DNA of 63,568 nucleotides, the filler included, from an uncultured Methanoregulaceae archaeon (GTDB taxonomy: Archaea > Halobacteriota > Methanomicrobia > Methanomicrobiales > Methanospirillaceae): the NCBI GenBank assembly GCA_964530035.1. It is 14 parts of 14 records of this genome, joined end to end, with 100 filler letters (N's around TTAATTAATTAA, not from the genome) between each part and the next. Parts side by side here need not be neighbours in the genome. Positions count along the whole stretch, not along the records: positions 19,470 to 24,086 come from CAZGXZ010000180.1; 13 more parts are not named here. One strand, written 5' to 3'. Positions 19,470 through 24,086 of the stretch are shown in pieces. Numbering within the stretch: the first letter of the stretch is position 1; each line of letters starts with the position of its first letter. Position numbers and translations under genes: made by a program. The notes beneath the pieces are model-generated. The model ran no database searches, had not been told where the DNA came from, and saw only the letters and a program-made list of their open reading frames with translations.

Positions 19470-20726
19470 GTACAACCTGCAGAGCAGCTTTACCAGGGTT
19501 GTCTTTCCCGAACCGTTCTCTCCGACGAGGGCCACGGTCCGGCCCCGGGGAATGGCAAGACTGATATCGGAGAGGGCGGCCTGGTCCGACCCGGGATACC
19601 TGAAGGAAACGTGGTCGAAACGGATCTCATCCTGGATCGGGGCGGGGAACGGTTTCGGGCGTTCCGGCTCCCTGATCCCAGGGGTGATATCAAGGAATTC
19701 GTAGAGGCTCGTCAGGAAAATCGCGTCTTCATACAGCCCGGCCACACCGGTAAGAAGCGTATTCATGAAGGCCTGGCTCTGCTGGATAATCCCGAAATAG
19801 AAGACCAGGTCTCCGACCGAGATGCTGCCCTGGACAGCCCGGTACACTACGACAGCGAGTGCGATGAAGAGGCCAAGGACGGCAAGGGACTGGGCTGCAA
19901 GGTCAGCACCAACTCTCTTCGCCGATATATCGAGGTACTCCCGGCGCAGCTCCCTCCGGAGGTCCTTGTATCTCCCCTTGAACCGTGGGCCAAGGTTGAA
20001 GAGCCTGATCTCCTTTGCATGGCTGTCACTGGTGAGCATCCAGTGGTAATACCAGCTCCGGCGTTCCTTCGGGGTCCTGCTGCGCCTCCAGGAGTACAGC
20101 CTGCCGGCATACTTCCAGCGTATGTAGGCGACAGGGATGATGGCCAGGAGGAGGACCACTGCGAGGACCCAGCTGAAGGAGATCAGGATAACCGCTATGG
20201 CTGCCAGCGTGACCGTACTCTGTCCTACCTGGACGAGTCCGTTCACGATACGGGTGGGACGGACCGGCGCCTCCATCTGCGCCCGGTAAAAGGTGTCATA
20301 ATACGCGGGGTTTTCATAGTATTCCAGGTCTACCTCGACGGATTTTGCATGCATGACGTCCTGGACGTGGTCGGTGGTGAGTGCGGACTGGACCTCGCTG
20401 ACATGCATAGAGAGCGACCGGGTAACCACAGTAGCCAGGCTTGTCCCGCACAGGAGGGCTATCAGGACAATAACGGGGATAAACGCCTCCTGCATCGTAC
20501 CGGACGCTATCGCGGCCGTGACCGCATCGATGATGAGTTTCAACAGGTATAATGAGACCAGAGGCAGGATTCCCTGCAGGACAACAAGGACCGAGCCCGC
20601 TACCGTCCATCCCGGGGCACTTTCCCATACGAGGGCCACCGCCCTCCGGAGGGTGAGGAACGTGTCAAGTTTCCTGTGAAGGCCATGAATTCCCGGCGTG
20701 GTCCTGGTTTCCTCTCCGGAGCTCAT
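19470..20726 (-). CDS. ABC exporter, fused permease and ATPase (lasso cluster D-type), 3' truncated
   Basis: N-terminal TM helices, AKEIRLF, Walker [10 protein letters not shown]. Confidence 0.9.
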
Positions 20727-20851
20727 CTCATTTCACCCTTCCCGTCTCCTGTCATGGCCGGCTGATCCCTAACCTCTCTACCATTACCTCATCAGCATTT
20801 CCTTTTGAAAATGTCCGTTTTGCTGGGAAACGGACAAATAGGGTCTGGTCA

Positions 20852-21838
20852 TCACAACCCCGCGAGATCCTCGAGAATGGCCTCGTCCACCTGTCGGAGG
20901 TGCTTAAACCCGGACGGATAGTACAGGCGTCGCATGGGGACCTGCACCACCAGGCGCCCAAAAAACATCATCCTCTGCACCTCCAGCCCGAGTGCCTCGA
21001 CGATTGAAATTGAAAACGAGTTCCGGACAAGCTCGATAAGGGCATCCCTTGGCGGGACCGGCTCGATGAGTATATCATCAGAACTTTCCTGCCGTCTTGG
21101 AAGATAAAGGGCCTTTATCGGTTGCTTTGTGTTGCAAAAGGTCCCGAATCCCTCCTCTCCGACAGGAACCCGGCGTTTGTCGAACCAGGGATGTACTATC
21201 TCCAGGTCATTATGTCGTCCCAGGAAGAACCGTGCCTCGTCGGGCCACATCCGCATGCAGGGATACCCGGGCCTGCAGAAAAACGTGCCATTGGACTCCT
21301 CCACGGGCATGATGTCGTCGGTCAGGAGAGCGTAGCCCTGTTGCACGAGTGATGCCGCAAGAGTACTTTTCCCGCCCTTGTTCGTTGACAGGAAACCGAC
21401 AGCACCGGCATCCGTCTGCACGGCAGAGGCATGGATTGCCGGGATACCATGCTTTTCGAGCCAGAGTGAGAGTACCTCCCCGAGCAGGAGGATCTCCACG
21501 AGGAATTCATAGTCAGGGTCCTGCACACAAGCGTCAATGTGGTCGTCGAACAGGTAGAAATCAACGGTCCGTGTAAAACGGACGACATCGCATTCTCCCG
21601 TCCTGTAGATCACCTGGAGGGGTTCACCGTCTTCAAGAACAGACCCCGAACGATAGACCGGTTTTGTACCCTTCCAGTCATCAGGGACCGGGGGGTTGTC
21701 AACCACGTTAAACCGGACATCAGGTTTACCGGATCCCTTGACAAACCTGTTTTTAAACGGATAGTCGCTTGCTAGAGTCAGCCCATAGAGCGTGTGATGC
21801 CATTCCAGTCCGGAGGAAGGGCCGGTATCATGAGACAC
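20852..21838 (-). CDS. HPr-kinase-like peptide kinase (lasso tailoring kinase type)
   Basis: IHASAV, variant P-loop STNKGGKST, LLTDD; probable GTG start at 21838 after GAGGAG, overlapping the upstream stop. Confidence 0.85.
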   Translation of the reverse strand: MSHDTGPSSGLEWHHTLYGLTLASDYPFKNRFVKGSGKPDVRFNVVDNPPVPDDWKGTKPVYRSGSVLEDGEPLQVIYRTGECDVVRFTRTVDFYLFDDHIDACVQDPDYEFLVEILLLGEVLSLWLEKHGIPAIHASAVQTDAGAVGFLSTNKGGKSTLAASLVQQGYALLTDDIMPVEESNGTFFCRPGYPCMRMWPDEARFFLGRHNDLEIVHPWFDKRRVPVGEEGFGTFCNTKQPIKALYLPRRQESSDDILIEPVPPRDALIELVRNSFSISIVEALGLEVQRMMFFGRLVVQVPMRRLYYPSGFKHLRQVDEAILEDLAGL

Positions 21839-22988
21839 TGCTTGTCTCCTCGAGAATCCGCTTCTGAAGTAACAGGTCAATGAAATCCGTCACTTCAGCC
21901 TGGAGAACCTGCTTGTCTGCGTCATATTCATCGGCGAGGGCCGTGATGACCTGTCCGCGGTTGCCAAATTTCACGACGGCATTCCATATGGCCGCGGAGA
22001 CCCCGTCCAGGACATAGCTTTCACGAGAAACAGTATGCCCGATGACCACTTCTTCCCCGATGACTGCAAATATCACCTCTTTTGATGGTGCGAGCGGACC
22101 TCTGGAAACAGGCTGCACATACACTGGAATCCTGGGTGGCATGTTCTTCAGGCACCGCCTTGGGGGGAGCAGGGTCCATCCGCACTCGGTTTTTTCAGTA
22201 ACCGGGTTCCAGAACGGCCTGTCCGGTTCGTTCCAGGAGAAGCAGAGATATTCAGGCAGCCCTATCCAGAGGCGTTCATTGTCGAAACGCCCGCTCCAGG
22301 TCTTTCGGTAGGATTCTGTTCCTCCATTGACCTCATCTGAATAGTCCCCGAGGTCACGGGCACTGATACACGCGGTAACGGGGAGTCCCAGGCGTCCTGC
22401 ACGAAGTTCCGGGTGAGAATATAGTGGGGCGAATATGACCTCCTTTTGCCCACAGGACTCCATGAAAGCCGAAAAGCGCTCACCGCTGATCGCACAGTCG
22501 TCAACGACGACCAGGGGCACGTCCGGTGACCCGGGGTACTGCAGCTGCCCTGGACTGATGCCCATGATGTATGAGAGGATGCCGAGGACGATGAGACCCC
22601 CGCGGGGGAGGGCATTGAAGGAGCACCTTTGAATTTTGTCATCACCAAGGTGTTCCCTGAACCGGGCTCCAAGTACCCGGCAGTCCTCGACAGCCTGCGG
22701 AAAATTGACATATCTCAGGTGGCGGAGAGCATAATCTACGTGCCACGAAAGAGCGCGTATACGGGCCGTTTCTACCTTGTTATACCTCCCGACAACTGCA
22801 ATAGTTGGGGGATTTATATGCACTACGATAGCTGAGGGGGGCATTGAGGACCAGAGGGGGCTCGATGCAATTCCCTGGGCAAGCTCTAGGAGGGGAGTCT
22901 CGCAATCCGGGCACACCTGATTATGGTAAGACTCAGTTCCACTTAGTTTGGCAATGATAATATGAAAATCCAAATCTGAATTGTTCAC
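21828..22988 (-). CDS. Phosphoribosyltransferase-like domain fused to a C-terminal PqqD/RRE (RiPP recognition element)
   Basis: ALPRGG and PRPP-loop-like VVVDDCAISG; C-terminal YVLDGVSAAIW...LADEYD...DFIDLL matches the PqqD/RRE pattern. Confidence 0.75.
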   Translation of the reverse strand: MNNSDLDFHIIIAKLSGTESYHNQVCPDCETPLLELAQGIASSPLWSSMPPSAIVVHINPPTIAVVGRYNKVETARIRALSWHVDYALRHLRYVNFPQAVEDCRVLGARFREHLGDDKIQRCSFNALPRGGLIVLGILSYIMGISPGQLQYPGSPDVPLVVVDDCAISGERFSAFMESCGQKEVIFAPLYSHPELRAGRLGLPVTACISARDLGDYSDEVNGGTESYRKTWSGRFDNERLWIGLPEYLCFSWNEPDRPFWNPVTEKTECGWTLLPPRRCLKNMPPRIPVYVQPVSRGPLAPSKEVIFAVIGEEVVIGHTVSRESYVLDGVSAAIWNAVVKFGNRGQVITALADEYDADKQVLQAEVTDFIDLLLQKRILEETSSVS

Positions 22989-23037
22989 AAAAAGAACCTT
23001 GTAGCTTCAGGAATTGTTCCATTAAAATGATATAAGC

Positions 23038-23046
23038 AAAAAAAAG
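23038..23046 (-). terminator. Oligo-T archaeal terminator candidate after precursor A1
   Basis: Run of 9 T on the minus strand about 40 nt after the A1 stop. Confidence 0.45.
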
Positions 23047-23085
23047 AATTCCTGTTCTCGCTCCCCTATTTGAAATGCATTAATT

Positions 23086-23268
23086 TTAATCCCGATAAGG
23101 TAGATCATTCGGAGTCGGAGTCTGCTGAACCTCCATTCCTGTTGGCCGATATGGATCGAACGAACCTGCACCGCCAGAGTCATTATAAACCCCAGTTCCA
23201 CCAAGCGTCAGATCCTTCACATTGCCTACTTTCACCAGTTCTGGTGATTCATACGTTCCTTTCTTCAT
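23086..23268 (-). CDS. Lasso peptide precursor A1 (22-aa leader, 38-aa core)
   Basis: Leader YESPEL (YxxPxL), G...LT with Thr at -2; core starts Gly1 with Asp8; purine-rich RBS GGGAAGGA upstream. Confidence 0.88.
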   Translation of the reverse strand: MKKGTYESPELVKVGNVKDLTLGGTGVYNDSGGAGSFDPYRPTGMEVQQTPTPNDLPYRD

Positions 23269-23359
23269 AAAATCCTTCCCCTAATTCATCTTTTAATAAC
23301 AATTAAATGAACGGTTTCCAGAAATAAATAAGTTGCTCAGCACCATTGACTTTACTTTT

Positions 23360-23504
23360 TCAGCCCTTCTCCCCTTCATATGATCTGGCACTGCCAAGGT
23401 CCTGATAGGGACCTTTATTCCCAAGGGTAAGGTCCTTCACATCGCCACCTTCCACCACTTCAGGATATTTAAATGCCTTTTTATTTGACTCAATCCTTTT
23501 CCAT
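23360..23504 (-). CDS. Lasso peptide precursor A2 (not in the ORF track; start codon is out of frame or non-canonical)
   Basis: Hand translation of 23494->23360: IESNKKAFKYPEVVEGGDVKDLTL-GNKGPYQDLGSARSYEGEKG*; ATG at 23504 is one base out of frame. Confidence 0.75.
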
Positions 23505-23612
23505 ATCTTTAGGAAAAGGTAGCACTTCCCCCCTCCTGATTTAAATAGTAAATAAATTTAGCATGGCTCTCCCTGATGCGAATGCCGTTTCCCAGACAAA
23601 GGTAATCTCATT

Positions 23613-24086
23613 TTATGTTAGCTCATTCACCTCCTCACCCGGGATCCTGCCGAACCGTTTTTCATATCCGCGTAACCATGCCTCGGCACAGAGAAAGCGG
23701 ACCAGAGGCCGGGCGGGGTAGCCCGTCCCATCGAGGTAAGATTTCCAGGCCTGTTCCAGGGGTTGCTGCCTGACAAGACCCAGCCTGACCGCACCCGGTT
23801 CCTGGAGCAGTGCCTCGGCCCGGTCTTTCTCTCCGGATTTCAGGCCCCGGTCCTGCAGGTCACCGGCATGGGCCTTCGAGAGCCGCGTCCTGATCTTCTC
23901 CGGCACCATTCCCTTCATCGCCTCCCTGAGCTGGCAACGGGTAACCCCGTCCCTGAAGGTGAGTCGAGGCGGCATCATGACCATGAAATCTATCAGCCTC
24001 CGGTCATAGAAGGGAAAACGCCATTCAACCCCTGTTGAGGAGGCATACGTGTCCAGGGTCACCCGGTACGCCGAGTTAAGGCCGTC
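23613..24086 (-). CDS. C-terminal part of an asparagine-synthetase-like lasso cyclase (C protein), 5' truncated
   Basis: EWRFPFYDRRLIDF..MP, LREAMKGMVPEKIRTR.SKA; directly upstream of the precursors. Confidence 0.8.
   Translation of the reverse strand, partial: DGLNSAYRVTLDTYASSTGVEWRFPFYDRRLIDFMVMMPPRLTFRDGVTRCQLREAMKGMVPEKIRTRLSKAHAGDLQDRGLKSGEKDRAEALLQEPGAVRLGLVRQQPLEQAWKSYLDGTGYPARPLVRFLCAEAWLRGYEKRFGRIPGEEVNELT

Follow-up and report, generated by a model that had tools for sequence, protein, structure and literature searches.

A tandem lasso peptide precursor gene without a start codon, a probable pseudogene, in an uncultured Methanoregulaceae archaeon

The lasso peptide gene cluster of an uncultured Methanoregulaceae archaeon contains, next to an intact precursor gene (A1), a second precursor homologue, A2 (23360..23497, minus strand; positions refer to the window, i.e., the whole stretch of 63,568 nucleotides that was analysed), which, judging from its sequence, is most probably a fixed pseudogene that was left by the loss of its start codon and yields no lasso peptide. 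Its first codon is AGG (23495..23497, minus strand), which aligns with the ATG of the intact orthologue in a genome of the same genus (G001) under all four pairwise scoring sets, and the recognition motif YxxPxL of its leader has been eroded to FxxPxV (23473-23456). Recent pseudogenisation had been among the options of a sequence-only reading of this DNA, and with AGG facing the start codon of an intact orthologue it is now the best reading of A2.

The A2 reading frame and its gene cluster

A2 comprises 45 codons and a stop (minus strand, 23497-23360), divided into a leader (23423..23497) and a core of 20 amino acids (23363..23422). Translation of the minus strand from 23494 to 23360 yields IESNKKAFKYPEVVEGGDVKDLTLGNKGPYQDLGSARSYEGEKG followed by the stop, exactly as given in the sequence-only reading, which had the right frame and began the gene one codon too late, at the ATT that follows the AGG. 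No stop interrupts the frame between a TAA at 23560 and the TGA at 23362-23360, and neither ATG, GTG nor TTG occurs in the 21 codons preceding the ATT or anywhere before the FKYP motif. A2 thus lacks the canonical in-frame start of a translatable ORF and is missing from the list of ORFs of at least 35 amino acids, both of which had been recognised before. The homology to A1 that had been proposed at the same time also stands, as the similarity exceeds chance: a tblastn search of the whole 2.36-Mb genome with A1 gave A2 as the sole other match (50% over 36 amino acids, E = 1.4e-5), and in the alignment the two cores have G1/G4/Y6/D8/G10/A12/S14/(F,Y)15/(D,E)16 in common.

The contig of A2 (G000:C180, 4617 bp, positions 19470-24086 of the window) carries, all on the minus strand, the 3' part of the lasso cyclase gene C (23613..24086), A2, A1 (23086..23268; intact ATG, SD-like site and YxxPxL leader), a gene encoding a protein of 386 amino acids with a predicted type I PRTase-like fold and a C-terminal lasso-type RRE (21828..22988), a gene for an HPr-kinase-related protein (20852..21880, a weak match under the cut-off) and the 5' part of an ABC exporter gene (19470..20726). 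The 5' part of C is found together with B1 and B2 on contig G000:C219 and the remainder of the exporter gene on G000:C209, so that B1, B2 and C all accompany A2 in the order B1, B2, C, A2, A1, PRTase-like/RRE fusion, HPr-kinase-like, ABC. We infer the joins across these contig breaks (C180-C219, C180-C209); the same genes are contiguous in G001 and in a third genome, G267. The window itself consists of about 15 joined contigs linked by N-runs around TTAATTAATTAA, and genes on either side of such a linker are therefore not true neighbours. The stop codon of A2 is followed by a conserved non-coding block (23305..23359, minus strand; 45/55 nt identical to G001), which is possibly the promoter region of A1 or the site of a regulator.

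In a search of 401 genomes of the order, a match to the cyclase at E 1e-60 was obtained in three of them (G000, i.e., the genome studied here, G001 and G267). The locus occurs in metagenomic runs from digesters and sludge, with small shares of it (0.05-0.20) in runs X15-X20, and we take the host to be a methanogen. In all three genomes the lasso cluster lies head-to-head with a gene for the oligosaccharyltransferase AglB (L006:1-340, L004:1-468, L009:6831-9437), an assignment made by Pfam for the copy of G267 and by N-terminal similarity for the other two. The tail of A1 past YRPT (23086-23136, minus strand) shares just 23/51 nt with G001, with a gap of 16 nt there in the MAFFT alignment; it possibly runs in another frame than in G001 and in protein P0008 (SERYVG...), and change in this lineage may extend to A1. 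In G267, two precursors start with ATG (L009:12440-13178) and each lies behind a duplicated upstream element of ~110 nt; in the second of these, which scores 17 bits with the lasso-leader model NF033521 (cut-off 19), Ile replaces Thr at position -2.

Start codon and leader compared with intact orthologues

The locus of G001 is 79% identical to the one described here and contains an intact A2 that begins MTESKKKTYEPPEL; in a DNA search of 41 genomes only three matched, namely G000 itself, G001 and, over 31 nt, G040. The search of related genomes for an intact orthologue, which had been put forward as a check of the sequence-only reading, has thus returned an ATG-started A2. A protein search with the G001 sequence returned four candidates (P0001-P0004), all Met-started and three of them full-length, which are 74-87% identical among themselves and 59-64% identical to the A2 allele. 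With the allele itself as query, no called protein sharing three 5-mers was retrieved, and its exact sequence is absent from the collection. Among 80 related loci (duplicates not removed), a canonical start is present in 76/76 motif-bearing precursors. A2 has one of the features of a pseudogene, a disabling change relative to intact orthologues that is found beyond one assembly.

A MAFFT alignment alternatively places a gap at the T of the G001 ATG, and the start is gone under either alignment. The ATG at 23504 (ATG GAA AAG GAT TGA), rightly described before as one base off the A2 frame, sits in the region of the SD-like GGTGG motif of G001. A 1-nt insertion had been invoked to account for this offset, yet the genome is 1 nt shorter than G001 there, not longer; and the start MEKIESNKK that removal of one base was said to restore is without counterpart, because M-(T/N)-E-S-K-K is the beginning of all three full-length orthologues and MEKI that of none. 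The SD-like site of G001 A2 is lost from the A2 allele as well: SD pairing amounts to -2.1 kcal/mol before the A2 ATT versus -6.5 for G001 A2 and -5.9 for A1, energies that are comparative only, since G000 yielded no 16S 3' end and an assumed anti-SD motif was used instead. Opposite 29 ATGs of G001 that lie at the onset of conservation, this genome has ATG in 26 cases, a canonical start within 6 codons in two, none in one and ATT in none, which is a small sample, as 29 of 182 genes were scorable. A sigma-70 promoter scan (2 sites versus 1.6 expected) is not applicable to an archaeon and was discarded.

The leader of A2 has been altered at the very residues that characterise lasso precursors. 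Its FKYPEV is a broken YxxPxL, with Phe for Tyr and Val for Leu, and because of the Phe at the Tyr/Trp position it does not conform to the pattern [Y/W]xxPx[L/V/I/F/A], which G001 and P0002-P0004 do; Phe at this position occurs in 0/86 leader matches of the 80 related loci (duplicates not removed). NF033521 gives A2 15.8 bits, below the cut-off of 19, versus 28.6 for G001 A2 and 28.5 for A1. Four of the 14 columns that are invariant in eight intact precursors (P0001-P0004, two A1 and two from G267) are changed in A2, i.e., Met1, Tyr9, Leu14 and Lys16. YxxP and Leu sit in the cleft of the RRE and are required for recognition, as far as the available portions of the sources describe it (PMC6784204; PMC13381572). 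The change from Tyr to Phe in A2 need not abolish binding, because hydrophobic changes in predicted recognition motifs, e.g., YxxP to LxxP, are reported as tolerated in the accessible text of PMC12710340.

A2 has nevertheless kept Thr-2, Gly1, Asp8, Tyr15 and KDLTLG, and it is free of internal stops and shifts. Thr stands two residues before the core (KDLTL/G), and with Gly1, Asp8 and 20 amino acids the core, delimited here by means of this Thr, has the small N-terminal residue, the Asp/Glu at positions 7-9 and the length of 14-24 amino acids that the available part of PMC6784204 gives for lasso cores. A core of this length with a predicted Gly1-Asp8 ring had been read from the sequence before and is borne out. 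Five core residues (K3, P5, L9, R13 and K19) are unlike those of all four orthologues; among them is the Arg13 that had been suggested as a plug, which is a private change and not a conserved plug, because position 13 is Gly in 4/4 orthologues; the conserved Tyr15 is still a candidate plug. The earlier interpretation has thus held in its recognition of a lasso homologue and in its option of pseudogenisation, and has failed in its assembly error, its 1-nt insertion and its Arg13 plug.

Selection on A2 and alternative readings

Compared with G001, dN/dS of A2 is 1.01 (leader 1.30, core 0.68), a value based on just 5.5 synonymous changes and inflated because pS (0.17) is under the genome median (0.35), whereas the leader of A1 has a dN/dS of 0.16 and B1, B2, C and the PRTase-like gene have values of 0.06-0.38. 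The difference between A2 and the pooled enzymes has Fisher p 0.002-0.009, and that between the A2 leader and the A1 leader alone has p 0.05-0.14. Ratios of pN/pS of at least 1 were reached in 12/1122 background windows of 44 codons (182 genes), sampled from 20 of about 210 G001 contigs (207 kb) and counted without 7 of 189 matches whose ratio exceeded 0.5 and which seemed to be non-coding or out of frame; with these included, 28/1140 windows reached 1. At columns unanimous in the other four A2 sequences, the A2 allele has 6/28 private changes, versus 0, 0 and 0 of 22 and 1/23 in the others. Together with the dN/dS of 1.01 this is consistent with relaxed selection, on small counts and with a dN/dS of 1.30 also in the intact A1 core.

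Out of 17 differences between A2 and G001, 14 are private to the A2 allele by eye (binomial p 0.001 for 14:1 and 0.013 for 14:3), a polarity test whose assumption is that at least one of P0002-P0004 is no nearer to G001 than the present genome. The four changes at invariant columns are independent of this assumption, because the A1 paralogues and G267 carry the ancestral state. In a neutral simulation with 15-23 substitutions no stop arose in 47-59% of cases, and the open frame of A2 is therefore weak evidence against a pseudogene.

The following course of events would fit these observations. In the relatives, by analogy with the family, A2 would be translated from its ATG and bound by B1 via YxxPxL, after which B2 would cut behind Thr-Leu and C would close Gly1 to Asp8. 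In the genome studied here, A2 without a start would stay untranslated, and a leader without YxxPxL would bind poorly to the B1 recognition element, so that neither cleavage by B2 nor cyclisation by C would follow. Since start, SD-like site and motif are all lost, A2 likely yields nothing. The cluster would be retained for A1, whose leader, like the enzymes, appears to be still under purifying selection.

Alternatively, a non-canonical start in the A2 frame, either the ATT (23494) or an ATA (23506), might still support low-level translation of A2, and its changed leader might still be processed to a divergent lasso peptide. The A2 frame is open, Thr-2, Gly1 and Asp8 are kept, the ATT lies one codon past the ancestral start, and in Ribo-seq data of Methanosarcina mazei 5% of unannotated small ORFs had a CTG start according to the available text (PMC11456600). 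We nevertheless consider this route unlikely. No SD-like site precedes the ATT or the ATA (-2.1 and -1.7, respectively), the accessible part of a review of archaeal initiation (PMC7531240) names AUG, GUG and UUG with 0 occurrences of AUU, the available M. mazei text lists no ATT start, and none of the 29 scorable orthologous starts, few as they are, is ATT in this genome. Moreover, the erosion of the leader would be left unexplained if the product mattered.

Ribosomes might also arrive from upstream. A2 is preceded by a uORF of 11 codons (23490..23525, minus strand) that starts with GTG, contains the out-of-frame ATG at 23504 and ends with a TGA (23492-23490) overlapping both the ATT of A2 and a TTG in the third frame (23493). 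Its SD-like site AGGAGG (23537-23532) is strong on the same comparative scale (-8.8 kcal/mol), and ribosomes that start at the GTG (23525) or at ATG 23504 might reach A2 through a +1 shift or might reinitiate at the ATT that the stop overlaps. Both termination-reinitiation and -1 frameshifting are known from archaea in the accessible texts (PMC7531240; PMC8211752), TTT-C and AAA-G in the uORF could by inspection slip +1, and G001 has a homologous uORF of 10 codons whose TGA overlaps the ATG of A2. This overlap may be due to chance, because any ATG with an A after it already contains an overlapping TGA, and the arrangement is not conserved, as G001 has its ATG in frame and only weak SD pairing (-3.7) before its uORF. 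The expected site of reinitiation would rather be the canonical TTG 23493, which leads to an unrelated peptide of 17 amino acids; the required shift is +1, and an X-XXY-YYZ heptamer is absent from the uORF frame by inspection. As the A2 leader is eroded regardless, we regard entry through the uORF as decidedly improbable, and the two routes remain a minor possibility even when taken jointly. That the methanogen makes a divergent lasso peptide by one of them (ATT or uORF entry), with an RRE that accepts an FxxPxV leader, is doubtful. If it did, tandem precursor copies would be tuned by translational recoding rather than lost, and an ATT start or recoding would be a rare event in an archaeal RiPP gene.

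A diversification of the A2 allele under selection, or its maintenance for a role as DNA or RNA, e.g., through regulatory sites of A1 in its 3' half, has very little probability. The A2 core with 55/63 nt and the adjoining non-coding block are indeed more similar to G001 than the other spacers (47/97 to 23/36), and pS of A2 is low; but pS of A1 is equally low, as it is in 73/1122 background windows, and such a role would be compatible with a pseudogene, to which it would merely add. It is scarcely credible, finally, that a normal ATG-started gene was disrupted by a single base wrongly inserted during sequencing or assembly, as the sequence-only reading had considered for the A2 start: short homopolymer runs (AAAA, GG) do lie between ATG 23504 and the A2 frame, and each of the four Logan runs carries a flag as a potential source of the assembly, with rare variants hidden in contigs, but in 4/4 runs from four studies a single contig covers the stretch 22900-24080 with 0 deviating letters and 0 gaps, an error being very unlikely because these studies agree at every base, and the orthologues are without extra residues between Met and Thr/Asn.

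Related systems and the PRTase-like/RRE fusion protein

The A2 allele is, on the evidence of its sequence, best classed as a pseudogene of the class II lasso precursors with discrete RRE (fusilassin/fuscanodin type; NF033521, NF033536, NF033537, NF033535), as start and leader motif deviate from them. The cluster resembles this type in its order B1-B2-C-A and its ABC exporter, and the precursors in Thr at -2, Gly1, Asp8 and a core of 20 amino acids without Cys. It differs in its archaeal host, in its two tandem precursors and in an A2 without start and with FxxPxV, and the scores of B1 (75.8 of 80 bits) and of C from G001 (413.5 of 525) are just under and under the curated cut-offs of the NCBIfam models, respectively. 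With the intact orthologues P0001-P0004, A2 shares the core scaffold G(N/G)(I/V)G(T/S)YQDPGSAGSYEGEMG, and with G001 A2 the location between C and A1, the same gene set being found beside AglB in G001 and G267. Unlike A2, however, P0001-P0004 and the precursors of G267 are Met-started and have kept YxxPxL.

Paeninodin-like clusters carry an HPr-kinase-like tailoring enzyme, which phosphorylates the terminal Ser of the core. An HPr-kinase-related gene is also present here, with a weak match (TIGR04352, 31 of 200 bits), but the cores are without terminal Ser and the PRTase-fold/RRE fusion is additional. The leaders of paeninodins have WxxP in the available text of PMC13381572 and those described here YxxP. 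The gene fucA1 of Saccharolobus/Sulfolobus solfataricus is likewise an archaeal gene interrupted relative to its orthologues, but it is read, according to the accessible part of PMC8211752, by a -1 shift at a slippery heptamer with downstream structure, whereas A2 has lost its start, would need a shift of +1 and encodes an eroded protein. The conserved slippery site and frame break of a programmed frameshift are not found in A2.

As a pseudogene, A2 would represent the loss of a tandem lasso precursor from one lineage in which A1 and the enzymes have been conserved, a case that is real yet ordinary. It warns genome miners against the "repair" of A2 by a frameshift correction, because the intact orthologue of G001 is the sequence worth studying. 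Putative lasso genes in Archaea have been noted before in the available text of PMC6784204, and Euryarchaeota are among the predicted producers (PMC12214591). Our literature search, with most subscription papers outside its scope, found no characterised lasso peptide from Archaea or Methanomicrobiales, and by title and opening of the abstract no paper on lasso pseudogenes or on the loss of their start codon.

The fusion protein of 386 amino acids is the more unusual element of the cluster and a better lead than A2. Its N-terminal part, predicted as a type I PRTase-like fold (model pLDDT 64), has weak Foldseek matches to OPRTase and XGPRT (E 0.01-0.1), its PRGG and DDC motifs are invariant in 9/9 homologues, and its C-terminal part matches the lasso-type RRE of TbiB1 (E 9e-6). 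It is a candidate for an RRE-guided tailoring enzyme. Homologues of the fusion are found in or beside lasso clusters of G001, G267 and the bacterial loci L010 and L012-L015. Among metagenomes, the PRTase-like protein led to six loci, all distant and without a close A2 allele. A fusion of this kind was not described in the literature on PRTase with lasso or RRE, as far as titles and openings of abstracts go, nor in the accessible text of PMC12710340. Three archaeal loci (L043, L088 and L104; two from Methanobacterium and one from a euryarchaeote) contain a cyclase homologue, a YxxPxL precursor and, by eye, a kinase-like gene. In a locus of cyanobacterial type (L015:240-900), a lasso precursor is duplicated in tandem, and the two copies are identical.
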